A stretch of 64,000 bases of DNA from an uncultured Chloroflexia bacterium (lineage in GTDB: Bacteria; Chloroflexota; Anaerolineae; JAAYZQ01), in assembly GCA_963700285.1 (NCBI GenBank), contig CAVOXA010000001.1, positions 320,001 to 384,000 of the forward strand. Reading direction: 5' to 3'. Positions 23,494 through 39,775 of this stretch are shown here, piece by piece. A program made the position numbers and the translations under genes. Positions within the stretch are counted from its first letter, which is position 1, and each line of letters opens with the position of its first letter. Under the pieces are notes generated by a model. It was not told the origin of the DNA. It made no database searches and worked only from the letters and a program-made list of their open reading frames with translations.

Positions 23494-23598
23494 GTGCTCC
23501 AAGCCTTATACCTTGCCCAACTGGTCATCGTTATTCTGTTGTTGGTTGAGCTCCTTGGGATTAAGGAGCAATTGGCCGTTGGGAGGGTTTCTGCATAG
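23494..23598 (+). CDS. Putative Ile/Leu/Val attenuator leader peptide
   Basis: GTG start: MLQALYLAQLVIVILLLVELLGIKEQLAVGRVSA*; nine consecutive I/L/V codons at 23521-23547. In-frame GTGs at 23440, 23446 and 23473 are alternative starts. Confidence 0.78.
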   Translation: MLQALYLAQLVIVILLLVELLGIKEQLAVGRVSA

Positions 23599-23623
23599 CA
23601 GATACACACAGCAAACAGGCGAG

Positions 23624-23650
23624 GGCCTCCCACAAGGGAGGCCTTTTTTT
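23624..23650 (+). terminator. Attenuator intrinsic terminator upstream of ilvD
   Basis: GGCCTCCC-ACAA-GGGAGGCC followed by T7. Confidence 0.9.
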
Positions 23651-25424: not shown

Positions 25425-27129
25425 ATGAGACTGACAGGAGCACAAGCGGTCTGGGAGAGCGTTGTGCGTGAAGGTGTCGACCTGATCTTTGGGATCTCGG
25501 GTGGAGCCGTGATCCACCTGTATCACGCCTTGCCCGAATTCCCCATCCGTCACGTGCTTACGCGTCATGAGCAGGGTGCGGCTCACGCTGCTGATGGTTA
25601 CGCTCGGGCCACGGGCAAGGTTGGTGTCTGCATTGCCACCTCTGGCCCTGGGGCTACCAACCTGGTCACCGGTCTAGCGACAGCACAGATGGACTCTTCG
25701 CCCATGGTGGCCATCACCGGGCAGGTCGTGACGCCTCTCATTGGCACTGATGCCTTTCAAGAGACGGACATCACGGGCATCACCATGCCTATCACCAAGC
25801 ACAGCTACCTGGTCACCGACGTCGAGGACATACCGACCGTGATGAAAGAAGCCTTCCACATTGCCAGGAGCGGCCGGCCAGGCCCGGTGCTCGTCGATAT
25901 CGCCAAGGATGCCCAAGCTGCCGAACTGGACTATGTATACCCCGACGACGTGTATCTCCCGGGGTATCAGGCTGCCCGATTCGGACCTGTCCGCCGAAAT
26001 CGAGGAGATGGCGCGGATGATCGACGAAGCGAGTAGACCGCTGATCATCGCTGGGCATGGTGTGATCCTGGCAGGGGCCGAGGATGCGCTGCTCCAATTG
26101 GTTGAGCGGGGTAAGGTACCGGTGATCACCACGTTGTTGGGCATCGGGTCCATGCCGGAGATGCATCCGCTTTGCCTGGGCATGGCCGGGATGCATGGCG
26201 AGGCGTACACCAATCTGGCGATATCGGAGGCAGATTTGCTGATCTCCTTGGGCAGCCGCTTCGACGATCGCCTCACCGGACCCGTCAGCCAGTTCGGAGA
26301 GCATGCGCGCATCGTCCACGTGGATATCGACCCCGTCGAGATCGGCAAGACGGTCTGGCCGGATCTGGCGCTGGTGGGCGACCTGAAAGATGTTTTGCCA
26401 GCGCTTGTTCCGCTGGTTGGGAATGGCGGAGACGTGGACGCGCGCCGGCAGGGGCGGGAGGAGTGGCTGGCTCGCATCCAGGAATGGCGTGGAGAGTCGG
26501 CCAAGCGGGACATCGTGGAGCAGGAAACCGACGAAATGGTGCCCCAATACGTCATACGCCAACTGTGGGAAGCGACCCGCGGCGAGGCGCTGGTAGTCTC
26601 GGATGTTGGGCAGAACCAGATGTGGGAGGCGCAGTACTTTATCCATCATCGCAGGCGGGGGCTGCTTTCCTCCGGCGGTCTGGGTACGATGGGTTTTGCC
26701 CTTCCAGCGGCCATCGGCGCCCAAATGGGACGCCCTGATGAGCTGGTGTGGGTTACCGTGGGCGATGGCGGGTTTCAGATGAATATCCAGGAACTGGCGA
26801 CTGTTGCCCAGGAAAAGCTGCCCATCAAGATCGCTATTCTGAACAATGGCTACCTGGGGATGGTGCGCCAGTGGCAGCAGTTGTTCTTTGAAGGGCGCTA
26901 TTCCGGAACACCGCTGTTGGGACCGGATTTTGCCAAGGTTGCCGAGGCCTATGGCATAGCCGGTATCACAGTCCGGAATAAAACCGAGGTCGTGTCGGCC
27001 ATTAACGAGGCCAACTCTATTGAGGGACCTGTGTTGTTGGATTTTCTCGTTGAGCAGGAAGAGAACGTCTATCCCATGGTTGCCCCCGGTGGTCCTGTTC
27101 ACGATATGATCCGCCGACCGAGACCTTAG
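25425..27129 (+). CDS. ilvB: Acetolactate synthase large subunit; +1 frameshift near 25968
   Basis: N-half ([14 protein letters not shown]) and C-half ([24 protein letters not shown]) are in different frames; removing one base at TATCAGGCTG restores PGYRLPD. Confidence 0.9.
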
Positions 27130-28909: not shown

Positions 28910-30499
28910 ATGTCAGCAGGAACGGATCGCGTATATGTCTTTGACACAACACTGCGCGATGGCGAGCAGTCGCCGGGAGCGGCGCTGACCGTCAATGAGA
29001 AGCTTGAAATCGCCCATGTACTCGAGGACCTCGGGGTCGACGTCATCGAAGCGGGTTTCCCCATTTCTTCGCCGGGTGACTTTCGGGCGGTACAGCGCAT
29101 CTCCCAAGAGATACGCAATTGTACTATCTGTGGCCTAACCCGAGCTAACAAGAAGGACATCGATGTCGCGGCCGAGGCGCTGCAAGATGCTGCATACCCC
29201 CGCATCCATACCGGGCTGGGCGTTTCCGACGTACACATTGAGTACAAGCTGCGCACCACGCGAGAAAAGGCGCTGGAGCTGGGCGTTGAAGCCGTTCGAC
29301 ACGCCAAGAGCTATGTCGAGGACGTACAATACTACCCCGAGGACGCTGGACGCGCGGATCCGGAGTATCTCTACCGGGTGGTAGAAGCAGTGATAGACGC
29401 CGGCGCTACGGTAGTCAATATCCCGGACACCACTGGTTATTCCACGCCTGACGAGTTTGGCGCCCTGATCCGGGGCATTGTTGAGAACGTACCCAACGTC
29501 CACCGGGCAATCATCGCGGTACACTGTCACGACGACTTGGGCATGGCTACGGCTAACACACTGGCCGGCGTACGCAACGGCGCCCGGCAGGTGGAGGTTA
29601 CGGTCAACGGTATCGGCGAGCGGGCGGGCAACACCTCGTTGGAGGAGGTGGTCATGGCTCTCCAGACGCGACGGCATGTTTTTGAGCTTGAGACCCGCAT
29701 CATCCCCCGGCACCTTTATCCTGTCAGCCGCCTCGTCAGCCAGTTGACGGGTATCCCGGTGCAGCCAAACAAGGCGGTCGTCGGAGCCAATGCCTTTGCC
29801 CACTCGTCGGGCATCCACCAGGACGGTGTGCTCAAGGAACGTACGACCTACGAGATCATCAATCCCAGGGACGTCGGCGTGCCTGACTCGGAGATTGTGC
29901 TTTCGGCGCGATCGGGCCGGGCTGGGTTGCGGCACCGGCTTGTTGAGTTGGGCTATGCATTAGAGGAAGAGCAGTTTGAGAAGGTCTACGAGCGTTTTCT
30001 GACCGTGGCCGACAAAAAAAAGACAGTGGCCACGCGCGATCTGGAAGCAATTGTGGCCGACGAAGTGCAGATGTTCTTCGAGGAAACCTATCATCTGGAG
30101 CACGTCCAGATATCGTGCGGCGATCACAGTATCCCCACGGCTACGGTCTCAATCCGGGGGCCAGAGGATGAGATGTACTGTGATGCTGACCACGGTACCG
30201 GTCCCGTGGACGCCGTCTACCGGGCTATCAACCGCGTCATCCGCGAGCCCAATGAACTCATCGAGTTCTCCATCCAGGCCGTGACAGAAGGTATCAATGC
30301 TGTGGGCCGGGTGACTGTGCGCATCCAGGCCGACGAACCGGTGACGGACAATGGGTACGAACGACGGGTGTTCAGTGGGCGCAGCTCTGACACGGACATC
30401 GTGGTGGCTGCTGCCAAGGCCTACATGTTCGCTCTCAACCGGCTGATCGCTGCCCGGCGTGAGGGAGAAGAGCGCACGGAAACGGCTGTGACAGGCTAA
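28910..30499 (+). CDS. leuA: 2-isopropylmalate synthase
   Basis: DTTLRDGEQ, HCHDD, GERAGN, HSSGIHQDG, regulatory domain GPVDA. Confidence 0.95.
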   Translation: MSAGTDRVYVFDTTLRDGEQSPGAALTVNEKLEIAHVLEDLGVDVIEAGFPISSPGDFRAVQRISQEIRNCTICGLTRANKKDIDVAAEALQDAAYPRIHTGLGVSDVHIEYKLRTTREKALELGVEAVRHAKSYVEDVQYYPEDAGRADPEYLYRVVEAVIDAGATVVNIPDTTGYSTPDEFGALIRGIVENVPNVHRAIIAVHCHDDLGMATANTLAGVRNGARQVEVTVNGIGERAGNTSLEEVVMALQTRRHVFELETRIIPRHLYPVSRLVSQLTGIPVQPNKAVVGANAFAHSSGIHQDGVLKERTTYEIINPRDVGVPDSEIVLSARSGRAGLRHRLVELGYALEEEQFEKVYERFLTVADKKKTVATRDLEAIVADEVQMFFEETYHLEHVQISCGDHSIPTATVSIRGPEDEMYCDADHGTGPVDAVYRAINRVIREPNELIEFSIQAVTEGINAVGRVTVRIQADEPVTDNGYERRVFSGRSSDTDIVVAAAKAYMFALNRLIAARREGEERTETAVTG

Positions 30500-34548: not shown

Positions 34549-36114
34549 ATGACCCTCAAGCTTTATGACACAACCTTGCGCGATGGTAGCCAACGGGAGG
34601 GCATCTCGTTCTCAGTAGAGGACAAGCTCAAGATCGCCCGACAGTTGGACCGGTTGGGCATGAGTTACGTGGAAGGCGGCTGGCCTGGATCAAATCCCAA
34701 GGACATGGCCTTCTTTGAGCGGGCTCCTGATCTGCGCCTGGAACGAGCTGTCGTAACAGCTTTTGGCAGTACACGGCGGGCGGGCACAACGGCTGAGCAG
34801 GATGCCAACATTCAGGCTCTGCTTGCTGCTGGCACGCCTGCCGTGGCGGTGTTTGGCAAGAGCTGGGATCTTCATGTCCATCACGTGCTTGGCACCACGC
34901 TGGAAGAGAACCTACGTATGATCGCCGATAGTGTGCGCTATCTGAAAGCGCAAGGGCGCGAGGTGATCTACGATGCTGAGCATTTCTTCGATGGCTACGA
35001 CGCTGACCCAGCCTACGCGCTGCGGACATTGGCTGCGGCTGCTGAGGCTGGGGCTGACGTGCTGGTGTTGTGTGATACCAACGGCGGCGCGTTGCCCTCG
35101 GTCCTGGCTCATGTTGTCAGCCTGGTACAGCAAGCCACGACTACGCCCTTGGGCATCCATACGCACAATGACAGTGGGATGGGCGTGGCAAACGCCGTCG
35201 TAGCTGTCGAGCGGGGAGTTGTCCATGTACAGGGCACGATCAATGGCTACGGCGAGCGCTGTGGCAATGCTGACCTTTGTGCCATCATTCCAACCTTGAA
35301 GCTCAAGATGGGCCACGATTGTGTCACCGACGAGCAGTTGACCGGTCTGACTGAGACCGCCCGCTACGTCAGCGAGCTGGCAAACTTGAAATTGGATGCG
35401 CACCTGCCCTACGTCGGCCACAGCGCCTTTGCGCACAAGGGGGGAATGCACGTCAATGCCCTGGTAAAGTGCGAGGAGAGTTACCAGCATATCAAACCCG
35501 AACTGGTTGGCAACCAGTCGCGCGTCGTCGTGTCCGAGTTGTCGGGCAAGAGCAACATTGCCTACAAGGTAAGTGAGTTCGGTCTGGAGTTGGCCGGTGA
35601 AACCCAGCTGGCCCAGCCTATTCTGAGCCGTATCAAGGAATTGGAGAGCCAGGGGTTCCAGTTCGAGGGGGCAGAGGGATCCGTGGAGCTGCTCATCAGG
35701 CGGGCCCGGCCGGACTATGTCCCGCCCTTTGAGCTTTTGGATTTTCATGTCCTGGTGCATGGCAGTGAAGGGGCTAGCATGGCGGCTGAGGCGACGGTCA
35801 AGGTGCGGGTGGGCGATGAGGTGATGCACACAGCCGCCGATGGCAACGGCCCAGTCAATGCTCTGAATACCGCTGTCCGGAAAGCGTTGTTGCCTTTTTA
35901 TCCCGGACTGGCTGATGTCCACCTTATGGACTACAAGGTTCGTATCCTGGATAGTGAGGCAGGTACGGCGGCTCAGACCCGGGTACTGATAGACTCGGCC
36001 GAGGGGCACCGTACTTGGAGCACTGTCGGCAGTTCGACAAACATCATAGAGGCCAGTTGGCAGGCACTGGCTGACAGCCTGGAATACGCTTTGTTGAATG
36101 GTGGAAATGTTTGA
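34549..36114 (+). CDS. cimA: Citramalate synthase
   Basis: DTTLRDGSQREG, GWPGSNPKD, AEHFFDG, HKGGMH, DYKVRIL, WSTVG. Confidence 0.9.
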   Translation: MTLKLYDTTLRDGSQREGISFSVEDKLKIARQLDRLGMSYVEGGWPGSNPKDMAFFERAPDLRLERAVVTAFGSTRRAGTTAEQDANIQALLAAGTPAVAVFGKSWDLHVHHVLGTTLEENLRMIADSVRYLKAQGREVIYDAEHFFDGYDADPAYALRTLAAAAEAGADVLVLCDTNGGALPSVLAHVVSLVQQATTTPLGIHTHNDSGMGVANAVVAVERGVVHVQGTINGYGERCGNADLCAIIPTLKLKMGHDCVTDEQLTGLTETARYVSELANLKLDAHLPYVGHSAFAHKGGMHVNALVKCEESYQHIKPELVGNQSRVVVSELSGKSNIAYKVSEFGLELAGETQLAQPILSRIKELESQGFQFEGAEGSVELLIRRARPDYVPPFELLDFHVLVHGSEGASMAAEATVKVRVGDEVMHTAADGNGPVNALNTAVRKALLPFYPGLADVHLMDYKVRILDSEAGTAAQTRVLIDSAEGHRTWSTVGSSTNIIEASWQALADSLEYALLNGGNV

Positions 36115-36144: not shown

Positions 36145-36173
36145 TTGACAGGGCGTGGGCTTTGCTGTACAAT
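36145..36173 (+). promoter_or_regulatory. Sigma70 promoter for the LeuA-like paralogue
   Basis: TTGACA (36145-36150)-N17-TACAAT (36168-36173). Confidence 0.75.
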
Positions 36174-36203
36174 CGTCAATGAAATGCCTCATCAGCGGAG
36201 GGT

Positions 36204-37880
36204 ATGATGGAGAGGGTCAGGATCTTTGATGCGACCTTGTATGGCGGTGGACAGGCGCCCGGTGTGGGTCTCGACATCGAGGAGAAGCTAGAAATCGCAC
36301 GCTTGCTGGAGCAGATGGGCATAGACGTCATCCAGGCAGGCTTTCCCATCTCCTCGCCACGGGCCTTCGAATCGGTGCAGAGACTTGCCCGAGAGATCCA
36401 AGACAGCGTGGTGTGTGCTCTGGCCCGCGCTCGACAGGAGGACATTGACGTTGCCCTTGCCGCCCTCAGGGGTGCGGCACAGCCGCGCATCCAGGTTGGG
36501 CTCGGTGTCTCTGACTCGTACGTCGTGGGCAAGCTTAAAAGCACGCGTGAGGCTGTGCTGTCTATGGGCGTCGACGCTGTCCGCTATGCGCGCCGCTATG
36601 TGGACGATGTACAATACTATGCCGCTGATGCCTGCCGGGCTGACATCGAGTACCTGTACGCTGTGTTGGAGGCCGTAATTGAAGCTGGGGCAGGAACGGT
36701 GAACATTGCAGATGCCATCGGCTTCTACATACCCTCCGAATGGGGTGCACTGATCTGCGGCATCCGAGAAAACGTGCCCAACATTGACAAAGCAATCATT
36801 TCGGTTCATTGCCACAATGACCTGGGCTTGGCTACGGCAAATGCGCTGGAGGCGCTGAACCATGGCGCCCGCCAGGTTGAATGTGCCGTCAATGGCATCG
36901 GAGAACGAACTGGCACGGCTCGCCTGGAGGAGATGGTGGTCGCCCTCAGGGCTCGAGGCTCAGTCCTGGGCCTGGACACCGGCGTCGAGTCGCATTTGAT
37001 CTACCCGCTCAGCCAGTTGGTCAGCCATCTGACAGGTCTTTCCATCCAGCCGACCAAGGCCATCGTGGGCGACAAAGCGTTCGCCTATACTTCGGGTATG
37101 TACCAAGATGGCGTGTTGCGGGGGCGGACCGATGGCGAGATTATCGATCCGGCGGAGATCGGAATTGTGGAAACACGGGATGGGGTTGCCCTGCTGACAG
37201 GGCGCCAAGGGCTGCGCCGCCGGCTGAGTGAGATGGGCTATAGTCTGGACGATGTGCAGTTTGAACAGATCTACAATCGGTTCCGGGCCATGGCCAAGAA
37301 AAAGCCTAACCTGGAGATTCGTGACCTGGAGGCCATCGTCAGTGGTGAGACGGCCCTGTTCCTGGAAGAGACCTATGAGTTGGAGCAGGTCCAGATCACC
37401 TGCGGTACCAATACGCTGCCCGTGGCCGCTGTTTGCCTGCGGGGTCCAGAGGAGGACCCGAGCTGGGCAACAAGCTATGGTAACGGCCCGGTGGATGCCA
37501 CCTTTAGGGCCATCGACCTTCTCGCTGGCGTGCCAAATGACTTGCTAGAGTACTCGGTGCAATCCATGACCGAAGGTGTGGACGCACTGGCCAATGTGGC
37601 GGTTCGGATCCAAGGAGAAATACCTGCCGCTGATTCGCGCCGGGCAGAAAAGCGCGTGTTCCTGGGCCGGGGCGTCGATACAGACATCTTGGTCGCCAGT
37701 GCAAAAGCCTATCTCTTTGCACTCAATCGTTTGCTGGCCGCAAGGCGAGCTACCAGCCGGCGACAGGTCATCACTGACGAGGTGAGACAAGCGCTGGAAG
37801 AGATGGACGCCCGGTATGGCACAGCGCATTCAGGTGACCTGATGGGCTGGAGTGCCCTGAGGGGGGAGGATCTGATCTGA
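36204..37880 (+). CDS. LeuA paralogue with degenerate active site (putative pseudoenzyme)
   Basis: Collinear with leuA 28910 but has DATLYGGGQ instead of DTTLRDGEQ; intact 558-aa ORF. Confidence 0.85.
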   Translation: MMERVRIFDATLYGGGQAPGVGLDIEEKLEIARLLEQMGIDVIQAGFPISSPRAFESVQRLAREIQDSVVCALARARQEDIDVALAALRGAAQPRIQVGLGVSDSYVVGKLKSTREAVLSMGVDAVRYARRYVDDVQYYAADACRADIEYLYAVLEAVIEAGAGTVNIADAIGFYIPSEWGALICGIRENVPNIDKAIISVHCHNDLGLATANALEALNHGARQVECAVNGIGERTGTARLEEMVVALRARGSVLGLDTGVESHLIYPLSQLVSHLTGLSIQPTKAIVGDKAFAYTSGMYQDGVLRGRTDGEIIDPAEIGIVETRDGVALLTGRQGLRRRLSEMGYSLDDVQFEQIYNRFRAMAKKKPNLEIRDLEAIVSGETALFLEETYELEQVQITCGTNTLPVAAVCLRGPEEDPSWATSYGNGPVDATFRAIDLLAGVPNDLLEYSVQSMTEGVDALANVAVRIQGEIPAADSRRAEKRVFLGRGVDTDILVASAKAYLFALNRLLAARRATSRRQVITDEVRQALEEMDARYGTAHSGDLMGWSALRGEDLI

Positions 37881-37882
37881 AA

Positions 37883-38881
37883 ATGGAAGACTGGATGTTT
37901 GAAGAGGAATGGGAGTGGGATCCTGAGGAGGATGATCGGGTCTTGTACGAAATGGCCGAGGAACTCTCTGACCGTTTGTTCCTAAGCGACAACGACCTGC
38001 TGCCAGATGCTGGTGCCGACTATAACCTGGGCTACCTGGGCCCCGAGGACTGGTGGCCACTCTCGATCCAATTGGTCGAGATGGTAGACCTGGAGGCTAT
38101 CGTCGATCTGATGGAGGCCCTGAATGAGCAATTGGGTCTCCCTGACCTTCCCACGGAGATACTAGAGGCCCCCCTCAATTTTCTGACAAGTGTGCTGGAA
38201 GGCAACCTGCCCCTGGAGCCCTCAGGGCGACGCGTGGGTAGCCGGCGCCTGGTCAAGATCGCCCTGCTCATGACCCGCTTGCTGCGGGAATTTCCGGCCC
38301 CTGCACAGGCAGCGGTCCGCGCTTGGGCTGACGTGCACCGGAAGCTGGCCAATCACTATGACCTGCCCGACTTCCATGAGGAGGACATGGATGAGTTCTT
38401 GCTCGCACCTGATCTGCCCCCGGCAGTTGCGGGATTCAGCTTGATGTTGGCCATGACCTTGATGCGCTGGCCTGAGCGAGCTGAGGGTGTGCCCCTGCCT
38501 TCGGGCTTTCTCGACCCTGACCTGTACGACGAGGTGTATGCCCAGTGGGAGTCGTTGCCCGATAGCCCTACGGTAACAGAAGAAGGGGTGGGAGAGGCCG
38601 AGGCGCTTTTTGCTCAAGGTCAGCTCGCGCATGCTTTGGCTCAGTTGGGTACGGTTGAGGGACTGGATCCCGACGAGGCCGAGGATGGGGATGTGGCCGT
38701 GGCCTATTCTCGCCTGAGCCGGGCGATCCTATGGATGCATGACCAATGTCGCCATTGTCCTGAGCGCGAGGAGATTGCCTGCCGGGCAATTACTGACTGG
38801 CCTGAGCATCCGGTACTCCTCTTGGATGTGGCCAGTGAGATCTCTAATACGGGCCGGATCAAGGGCTGTGTGCGCATGTAG
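37883..38881 (+). CDS. Hypothetical acidic protein with C-terminal Cys cluster
   Basis: 332 aa, very D/E-rich; CRHC-x7-C...C near the C-terminus; starts 2 nt after the upstream stop. Confidence 0.75.
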   Translation: MEDWMFEEEWEWDPEEDDRVLYEMAEELSDRLFLSDNDLLPDAGADYNLGYLGPEDWWPLSIQLVEMVDLEAIVDLMEALNEQLGLPDLPTEILEAPLNFLTSVLEGNLPLEPSGRRVGSRRLVKIALLMTRLLREFPAPAQAAVRAWADVHRKLANHYDLPDFHEEDMDEFLLAPDLPPAVAGFSLMLAMTLMRWPERAEGVPLPSGFLDPDLYDEVYAQWESLPDSPTVTEEGVGEAEALFAQGQLAHALAQLGTVEGLDPDEAEDGDVAVAYSRLSRAILWMHDQCRHCPEREEIACRAITDWPEHPVLLLDVASEISNTGRIKGCVRM

Positions 38882-39049
38882 GCATTCCCTACAGTCATGC
38901 GCGGCCCTCAACCTCGCACCGCCTTGATGGATCTGTTGCCGCAGTACGCCGACAGCCTTCTCGAATGCCCCTAGTCCTTGGGGATTCCGGGCCTTGATCC
39001 ACAAGATGTCGTATACTCAGGTTCTGATGTTGGCGACACTCTGACGAGG

Positions 39050-39078
39050 TTGACAGGACTACGATCACAGGCTATAAT
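39050..39078 (+). promoter_or_regulatory. Perfect consensus sigma70 promoter
   Basis: TTGACA (39050-39055)-N17-TATAAT (39073-39078). Confidence 0.85.
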
Positions 39079-39129
39079 GACTTGCTTTTTGCCTTCTGTC
39101 TTCCGCTCTAGCCGGTCTTCTGTGAGACG

Positions 39130-39775
39130 ATGGATTCTTACGCATTGTTGGTGGTCGGACGCACCCAATCGTTGGCTGAGCATCTGCGCAGGACGCTCGA
39201 CGCGGAGCAATACCGCATCCGCTGGGTGCCCAGTACTGCCCAGGCGCAGGCGCTCGATTTTTGGCCCTCTCTGCTCGATCCTTGACCTGCCGCCTTCGGG
39301 TGGTGCCCGCAGCGTGCCGCGCCTGAAACTTCGCTTTGAGGTTCCCGTGTTGGCTCTGCTTCAGCCCGGTCAATCTGTTCCTGGCCAGGTGGATGCTTTC
39401 TTGCCCCGGCCTTTCACAGTGGACCAATTGGTCGAGGCGATCCAGGCGACCTTGATGGCTTATACGCCCCACGTTGTGCAAGCAAAGGGTATGTCTCTGG
39501 ACACGAGAACGAGACGGCTCCAGGTTGATGGTGTCTTCTACCAGCTTCCTCCCATCGCCTGCCAGATACTTGCTCTGCTCATGGCTCGGGCTGGCAAGGC
39601 CGTGCCGCGTGACGAATTGTTCCACCGTATCTGGCAAACAGACGACGGGGACAATACGCGGGTACTGGATGTGCATATCGCTCATCTCCGCCGTTTGCTC
39701 GAAGTCGATCCCCGCCGTCCAAAACTGATCCTCACGGAACGACGGGTCGGCTACCGCCTTCAACCCCCTGACTGA
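39130..39775 (+). CDS. OmpR-type winged-helix regulator with atypical receiver domain; +1 frameshift near 39277
   Basis: MDSYALLVVG...PSLL then ILDLPP...; C-terminus RVLDVHIAHLRRLLE...ILTERRVGYR. Confidence 0.75.

Follow-up and report, generated by a model that had tools for sequence, protein, structure and literature searches.

The open reading frame (ORF) considered here occupies positions 36207-37880 on the forward strand of the window, that is, of the whole stretch of 64,000 nucleotides at G000:C1:320001-384000, and closes the cluster ilvD-ilvB-ilvN-ilvC-leuA-leuC-leuD-leuB-ilvE-cimA, in which leuA and cimA were named by NCBIfam and the remaining genes from reading their translations. Its sequence, alignment, Pfam domains and orthologues identify it as the coding sequence of a LeuA-derived pseudoenzyme of 557 amino acids. 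Of the two possible starts, 36204 and the ATG at 36207, the latter is the likelier because of its spacing from the ribosome-binding site GGAGG (36197-36201, forward strand, 5 nt before the ATG) and because the orthologues are 557 amino acids long. An intact, tail-less leuA that scores above the cut-offs of both TIGR00973 and NF002086 lies in the same operon (28910-30499, forward strand), 5.7 kb upstream of the ORF and separated from it by five genes, and the usual upstream neighbour, the citramalate synthase gene cimA, is found at 34549-36114 on the same strand; in three relatives cimA is missing from this slot. Altogether, the source genome contains four LeuA-like genes, namely, leuA, cimA, the ORF, and a gene at G000:C1:978051-979199. 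The last of these, a fourth DRE-TIM gene with an intact LRDGEQ motif and no regulatory domain, is homocitrate-synthase-like by reading.

The operon is preceded by a predicted attenuator (23494-23650, forward strand), in which a leader peptide rich in Leu, Val and Ile (23494-23598) and a hairpin plus T-run (23624-23650) are placed before ilvD, the hairpin having been called by inspection of the sequence and not listed by the terminator scanner. Between cimA and the ORF there is a sigma-70-type promoter-like site, TTGACA-17-TACAAT (36145-36173, forward strand), with 11 of 12 consensus matches. Sites of such quality number three in 16.8 kb, this one included. Among the sequences upstream of orthologues, 5 of the 18 that are distinct have a similar site, a count that has no shuffle control and from which 3 of 21 rows repeating a relative's DNA were left out. 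The sequence-only reading had credited the gene with its own promoter outside the attenuator; the promoter-like site is indeed there, but operon read-through into the ORF is possible too, because the terminator scan found no terminator between cimA and the ORF. Across four RNA runs, five contigs of 151 nt fall within the ORF, with 0-1 differences (X1, X2, X4; two at identical coordinates), in a screen in which five runs contained 5-7% of the sequence words; these contigs are a weak sign of transcription and do not demonstrate it.

The surroundings of the gene show several further peculiarities. The ilvB gene (25425-27129) is split across two frames here and whole in a genome of the same genus (G001), so that an assembly indel is the probable cause. 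Only 2 nt past the stop codon of the ORF starts an acidic 332-residue ORF (37883-38881), present as a single genome copy and 80% identical in G001. It had been proposed as a partner of the pseudoenzyme, which is contradicted by its occurrence beside the gene only in the same-genus genome, among the loci examined, and by the lack of any Pfam or NCBIfam match. Further on, a perfect TTGACA-17-TATAAT (39050-39078) falls within the listed ORF of a winged-helix regulator (38978-39775), the N-terminal part of which has no receiver-domain match; the true start of this regulator is probably downstream, or the gene is frameshifted.

Catalytic residues, leucine site and tail

The ORF product is 55% identical to the product of leuA over 518 columns, and all seven motif changes that had been noted are present: LRDGEQ>LYGGGQ, VIEAG>VIQAG, YPEDA>YAADA, IPDTTG>IADAIG, GERAGN>GERTGT, AHSSGIHQDG>AYTSGMYQDG and TYEII>DGEII, the N>T change in GERAGN and the letters DGEII being variable within the pseudoenzyme family. 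In particular, YGGGQ (aa 12-16; 36240-36254, forward strand) replaces RDGEQ, removing the catalytic arginine and the metal-binding aspartate, and both histidines of subdomain I are replaced by tyrosine in AYTSGMYQDG (aa 293-302; 37083-37112, forward strand), a segment that in IPMS dimers covers the active site of the partner subunit (PMC9860122). As had also been noted, the frame is open and the motifs HCHND, GNGPVDA and TDILVASAKAY are kept. In the metal-binding motif HCHND (aa 201-205; 36807-36821, forward strand), H201 is found in 168 of 173 orthologues (Q in 5) and H203 in all 173.

When residues are numbered via an alignment with 6E1J, the Brassica methylthioalkylmalate synthase (MAMS), six of the nine named active-site residues are replaced (R89>Y12, D90>G13, E227>A140, T257>A170, H388>Y299 and Y399>G310) and three, Q93, H288 and H290, are kept; position 310 varies across the family, and the five other replacements are fixed residues. 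The Glu-Tyr-His triad and the substrate-binding threonine are thus gone, their places being taken by A140, the variable residue 310, Y299 and A170. PMC11532901 lists the MAMS mutants R89A/K/Q, E227A, T257A, H388A/Q/D/E and Y399S as inactive, and the ORF bears the equivalents of two of these very changes, E227A and T257A. Because the replaced residues include changes that inactivate MAMS, there is a strong case that the ORF product has lost IPMS activity. More generally, 73 positions reach a conservation of at least 90% across 107 diverse intact LeuAs; the family has lost 14 of these, 11 in favour of a new residue that is fixed, whereas three small intact LeuA clades have each lost 0 of 73. Of the named active-site residues six of nine are lost, compared with 14 of the 89 remaining conserved residues (Fisher p=0.002), and the RD of the DRE helix is present in 122 of 149 LeuA-like representatives, fragments included. 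The earlier impression that the changes concentrate at the most conserved positions holds in comparison with intact enzymes only: within the family, variable positions change more often (93 of 239) than these do (14 of 73). Side chains that carry a charge or can ionise are lost through the fixed changes (R>Y, D>G, E>G, E>Q, H>Q, H>Y, E>A).

Could the protein still be an isopropylmalate synthase that works by an altered mechanism? It does pass NF002086 (601 bits versus a cut-off of 532), and the source records of close homologues, which carry Anaerolineae organism names, call them 2-isopropylmalate synthase; but it falls under TIGR00973 (580 bits versus 599), and the loss of six of nine catalytic residues makes this reading, like that of a young pseudogene, barely credible. 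The family is LeuA by descent and fold, mislabelled as the enzyme in databases.

The rest of the LeuA architecture is in place. The TIM barrel, subdomains I and II and the C-terminal LeuA_dimer domain are all present, the three LeuA Pfam domains follow in the order PF00682-PF22617-PF08502, and the barrel fold is kept, with a TM-score of 0.95 to 3eeg. The allosteric domain responsible for leucine binding and dimerisation (aa about 386-515; 37362-37751, forward strand; PF08502, E 2.7e-29) contains GNGPVDA at 37479-37499; N426, G427, P428, A431 and T455 are each found in 173 of 173 orthologues and D430 in 172 of 173. The leucine-site motifs are steadier in the family than in the intact enzymes, with GNGP invariant; the N426 column is Asn in 173 of 173 family members and in 0 of 28 tail-less intact LeuAs. 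Going by motif likeness, we take these residues to be putative leucine contacts of the ORF product, which is predicted to bind leucine. Specifically, D430 and T455 appear to be the counterparts of the Asp433-Thr461 contact that PMC9860122 describes for leucine-bound Neisseria IPMS. The idea that an active LeuA has lost its leucine site and borrows that of the pseudoenzyme was dismissed, as Thr/Ala/Ser variants of the motif occur in paralogue-free genomes too.

The product ends in a tail (aa 516-557; 37752-37877, forward strand) with a predicted long helix and the conserved pattern G-x-x-H-x-G-D-F-x-G-W-x-x-x-R-x-E. At a threshold of at least 0.9, no tail homologues were found in the ESM Atlas, and a search restricted to proteins of LeuA length gave 6 matches among 35 candidates, all of LeuA type. 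The AlphaFold monomer has a mean pLDDT of 73.5, with 51-70 in the tail and less than 50 in subdomain I, so that no docking site can be read from it. The retained leucine-site motifs, along with the failure to find a partner, could also be reconciled with a passive buffer or scaffold for leucine (or CoA) that has no signalling output; since such a role leaves the fixed barrel residues, the conserved tail and the loss of the gene in LeuA-less relatives unexplained, we regard it as very improbable.

Orthologues, origin and distribution

The first homologue search listed at least 120 proteins of 72-100% identity, nearly all of 557 amino acids and all with YGG-Q. Combined with a second search started from the deepest member (G048) and with the genome copies, it gave a family set of 173 distinct sequences. 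The motif is carried by 155 of 155 examined search matches; Y12 and G13 are present in all 172 sequences that cover these positions, and Q96, S104, Y105, T295, Y299, G306, H203, D205, E225, E233 and R234 in 173 of 173, conservation being inflated by the similarity ranking of the homologue lists. The deepest member, at 61% identity, shows the same new residues but still has His294. When clustered at 50% among the best 150 representatives, the family forms one full-length cluster and two fragments. The dN/dS ratio of the pseudoenzyme, 0.029-0.193 in 13 genome pairs, is far below 1, as against 0.045-0.139 for leuA in 10 pairs; it exceeds the leuA value in 8 of 10 matched pairs, with several dS values above 1. 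The gene is under purifying selection, and broken copies were seen only in G001, an indel-rich assembly, and G632. Both the 173 orthologues with nearly invariant new residues and the low dN/dS exclude a young pseudogene and support the earlier proposal of selection for a role other than IPMS over random decay.

The origin of the family turned out to differ from the first impression, which was that the gene had arisen by duplication of the leuA nearby. In families f3 and f41, seven genomes, each with a single LeuA-type match, encode a catalytically intact LeuA with the same tail, which is hence no novelty of the ORF. In a tree of 40 rows computed without the tail and motif columns, the family and the tailed intact LeuAs form one clade (100/99), AU tests reject joining the family to the tail-less clade in which the neighbouring leuA falls (p=0.0004 and 0.0005), and a quick tree of 58 rows agrees with the tailed-LeuA grouping. 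It follows that the tail predates the catalytic loss. These data fit an ancient duplication and differential loss as well as the transfer of a leuA that already had the tail. Eight residues are common to the pseudoenzyme and the tailed intact LeuAs and missing from the tail-less clade. The tailed LeuAs themselves (L013:2681-4348, L066, L067, L068, L069) have a conserved 40-residue C-terminal tail of no known family, and their genes lie 5' of leuC in the five loci that extend far enough to reveal the arrangement.

The pseudoenzyme was found in 24 genomes from five Anaerolineae families. A second LeuA is present in 22 of these 24 carriers, and of 10 close relatives that lack LeuA none has the pseudoenzyme. 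For two carriers and eight of the second LeuAs the assignment is by identity alone; kin are not independent in these counts, and most of the genomes are incomplete. Within its own order, 16 of 23 genomes are carriers, 15 of the 16 with a second LeuA-type match, and the 7 non-carriers show no LeuA-like match at 1e-25. The five of these 7 that were tested have no ilvC and only LeuC-like (37-54%) and LeuB-like (39-42%) matches; in G003, G014, G015, G017 and G233, which lack both LeuA and ilvC, a linked pair of LeuC-like and LeuB-like genes (45-49% and about 40% identity) is kept. Carriers in four other orders amount to 2 of 3, 3 of 4, 2 of 22 and 1 of 1 genomes; there are 12 among 221 genomes of the class and none among 400 further genomes of the phylum. 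A scan of named genomes, dominated by ordinary LeuA, gave one family member among the best 80 loci (labelled Ardenticatenales). The gene is thus gained and lost along with the ilv-leu pathway; its role is dispensable elsewhere, since 152 genomes of the class have a LeuA-type match and 140 of them show no pseudoenzyme. The two carriers without a second LeuA are G008, which is 71% complete and whose contig begins inside the operon, and G042, which is 84% complete and in which the copy is intact while leuA, leuB, leuC, ilvC and ilvD all gave no match. In G632 only aa 1-195 of the paralogue (L185:3149-3769) and the last 160 residues of leuA (L186:8030-8515) remain, 2.3 Mb apart, which possibly reflects co-decay or else assembly joins.

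Because, in the relatives checked, loss of LeuA goes along with loss of ilvC and leuB, co-occurrence cannot name a partner. The usual 5' neighbour is cimA or ilvE, and the gene stands alone in G009, G042, G048, G087, G179 and G204, being retained in G087, G179 and G204 even though it has moved away from the operon. CimA, which had been considered as a partner, fails on this account: no cimA match was obtained in G002, G005, G006, G018 and G236, and ilvE abuts the gene in G002, G005 and G018. The downstream neighbours vary, often being a gene of the cystathionine-lyase family or lysC; no constant neighbour other than ilv-leu genes was seen at the loci examined, and no acyl-CoA ligase among the 8 neighbours scanned against NCBIfam. 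In the deepest-branching member, G048, the gene lies just 3' of a gene for the gamma subunit of a 2-oxoacid:ferredoxin oxidoreductase (L036:2312-2881), a single case.

Possible functions and known systems

When considering what a dead LeuA could do, the architecture of the enzyme is important. According to PMC9860122, IPMS is a swapped dimer in which either chain has its accessory and its regulatory domains lying on the barrel of the other, His297 and Tyr313 touch the barrel of the partner, and leucine exerts its inhibition by making the dimer stiffer. In the ORF the equivalents of His297 and Tyr313 are Y294 and a variable residue, and the general-base histidine is Y299. Because subdomain I of each chain completes the active site of the other, mixed dimers of the pseudoenzyme with LeuA would have both sites crippled, and a dominant-negative subunit made from its own promoter could soak up LeuA when the latter is low, sharpening the attenuator switch. 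Such poisoning, which we rank second and consider rather unlikely, would fit the replacement of the partner-contacting residues, the heterodimers formed by yeast IPMS paralogues (PMC7418496), the tight co-occurrence with leuA, the remnants of both genes in G632 (unless these are assembly joins), and a promoter-like site outside the leader. It is weakened, however, by co-resident LeuAs that are 45-57% identical to the ORF with no sign of re-adaptation, by G042, which has no LeuA, and by the lack of a clear reason for fixing new residues in the pseudoenzyme's own barrel. The one candidate for an adaptation of LeuA, His338Ala, failed the controls: of the 13 carriers examined 10 have it, yet 25 of 122 diverse representatives have Ala as well, and the test failed to reject a single origin (p=0.15). 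The opposite effect, activation of LeuA in a heterodimer, appears unlikely from the sequences, because the residues that would be lent to the active site of the partner are lost as well; nor does the distribution suit an obligate activator, as LeuAs of the same clade exist in families f9, f19, f43 and f52 with no detected copy.

The barrel is the best-conserved domain of the pseudoenzyme (77% identity in nine genomes versus 83% for LeuA), and, along with Y12 (172 of 172), residues H203, D205, E225, E233, R234, Y105, Y299 and Q96 are invariant in 173 sequences. This conservation could point to a pathway-linked enzyme with new chemistry, for instance, a thioesterase or a metabolite-repair enzyme employing the two kept histidines and the new tyrosines. 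Yet the fixed changes remove charged and ionisable groups, subdomain I is relaxed (72% versus 97%), and the loci examined show no dedicated pathway neighbours, so that we place this possibility third and deem it improbable.

We rank first, albeit tentatively and with somewhat less than even confidence, a non-catalytic leucine-binding dimer of the pseudoenzyme with itself, which would tune ilv-leu enzymes by protein contact. An own dimer with a rebuilt pocket is favoured because 11 of the family's 15 new invariant residues map to the barrel and to subdomain I and so to either side of the swapped interface; because the co-resident LeuA may come from a distant clade (45-48% identity in G048, G179 and G204) with no rise in dN/dS (0.099); and because eight residues accompany the tail and do not occur in LeuA without it. 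The evolution of such a regulator can be envisaged as follows. The tailed ancestor would have done two jobs, catalysis and tail-dependent regulation, and, once another LeuA provided catalysis, the tailed copy would have retained the regulatory job alone. Leucine, bound between both regulatory domains, would make the dimer more rigid, as it does in Neisseria IPMS; the stiffening would shift the subdomains and the tail such that an enzyme of the pathway is bound or released, the likeliest candidates being the active LeuA dimer and acetohydroxyacid synthase, while the former active site would either be shut by the new tyrosines or accommodate a second ligand. Several points count against this tuning of the pathway by a leucine-binding dimer: apart from ilv-leu genes the gene has no constant neighbour; the joint loss of LeuA, ilvC and leuB keeps co-occurrence from naming a partner; the role is dispensable in most LeuA-bearing genomes of the class; H201/H203, Q16, E233 and R234 are retained although a pure sensor could do without them; and G042 has an intact copy with no ilv-leu match.

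Dead LeuAs are not confined to this family. An independent pseudoenzyme from Alphaproteobacteria, as judged by source names, forms a cluster of 21 proteins (P0237 and P0310-P0323; loci L154-L160) in which LFAGDH/R, DCPND and GARAG replace the catalytic motifs, with the trans His and Tyr and GKGPVDA kept; it occurs at 7 of 20 loci, with 73-99% identity. It seems to have degenerated in place, because its flanking genes and their order are those around the intact leuA of a relative (L161). Full-length LeuA-like proteins with several catalytic residues replaced and regulatory motifs mostly kept (P0144, P0149, P0151, P0185, P0201, P0263 and P0269) are possibly more independent pseudoenzyme families. 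A broader conjecture, to which we attach only limited credence, is that LeuA itself has an unrecognised, tail-borne, non-catalytic job in leucine signalling, which was split off here as a sensor with two inputs, with the alphaproteobacterial dead LeuA as a repeated invention. The two inputs would be leucine at the regulatory domain and a second metabolite in the rebuilt, tyrosine-lined barrel.

Pseudoenzyme regulators of amino-acid synthesis, such as HisZ and prozyme, are known. None was found described for isopropylmalate synthase, nor was this family, in a search of the open-access literature. The availability of evolutionary intermediates, namely, the tailed active enzymes and the deep-branching, partly changed member, makes the conversion of an enzyme into a regulator, and with it IPMS allostery, directly testable with heterologously expressed proteins, and the tailed intact LeuAs allow the function of the tail to be tested separately in an active enzyme. 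In addition, calls of leucine prototrophy in metagenome-derived genomes are affected, since a protein stripped of its catalytic residues is still named LeuA by curated profiles.

Compared with known systems, the ORF product resembles bacterial LeuA (NF002086, TIGR00973; PDB 3eeg, 3rmj, 3ewb, 1sr9/3fig) in domain order, fold, HxH and leucine-site motifs and differs from it in the replacement of the active-site Arg, Asp, Glu, Thr, His and Tyr, the 42-residue tail, and the co-residence with an intact LeuA. The closest counterparts, the tailed intact LeuAs of f3 and f41, share the tail, the clade and the eight residues, but keep LRDGEQ, HSSGIHQDG and TYEI, are encoded 5' of leuC, and are the sole LeuA found in their genomes. 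In the yeast Leu4-Leu9 heterodimer, paralogous IPMS chains tune leucine control, but both chains are active, unlike the ORF, for which a mixed dimer is hypothetical (PMC7418496). The features of pseudoenzyme regulators that the ORF displays are a kept fold with lost catalytic residues, purifying selection and, with the exception of G042, co-occurrence with the pathway. HisZ is a paralogue of aminoacyl-tRNA synthetases. As in the HisZ-HisG short form and the trypanosome prozyme, a non-catalytic protein would control a biosynthetic enzyme; prozyme is, moreover, a dead paralogue of its own target, and both HisZ and prozyme activate their partners (PMC9734150, PMC10795190, PMC5201418). The ORF differs from these activators because it has lost the residues that one chain lends to the other and because sister LeuAs occur without it, so that, should it control an enzyme of the pathway, it would probably do so otherwise than by activation.
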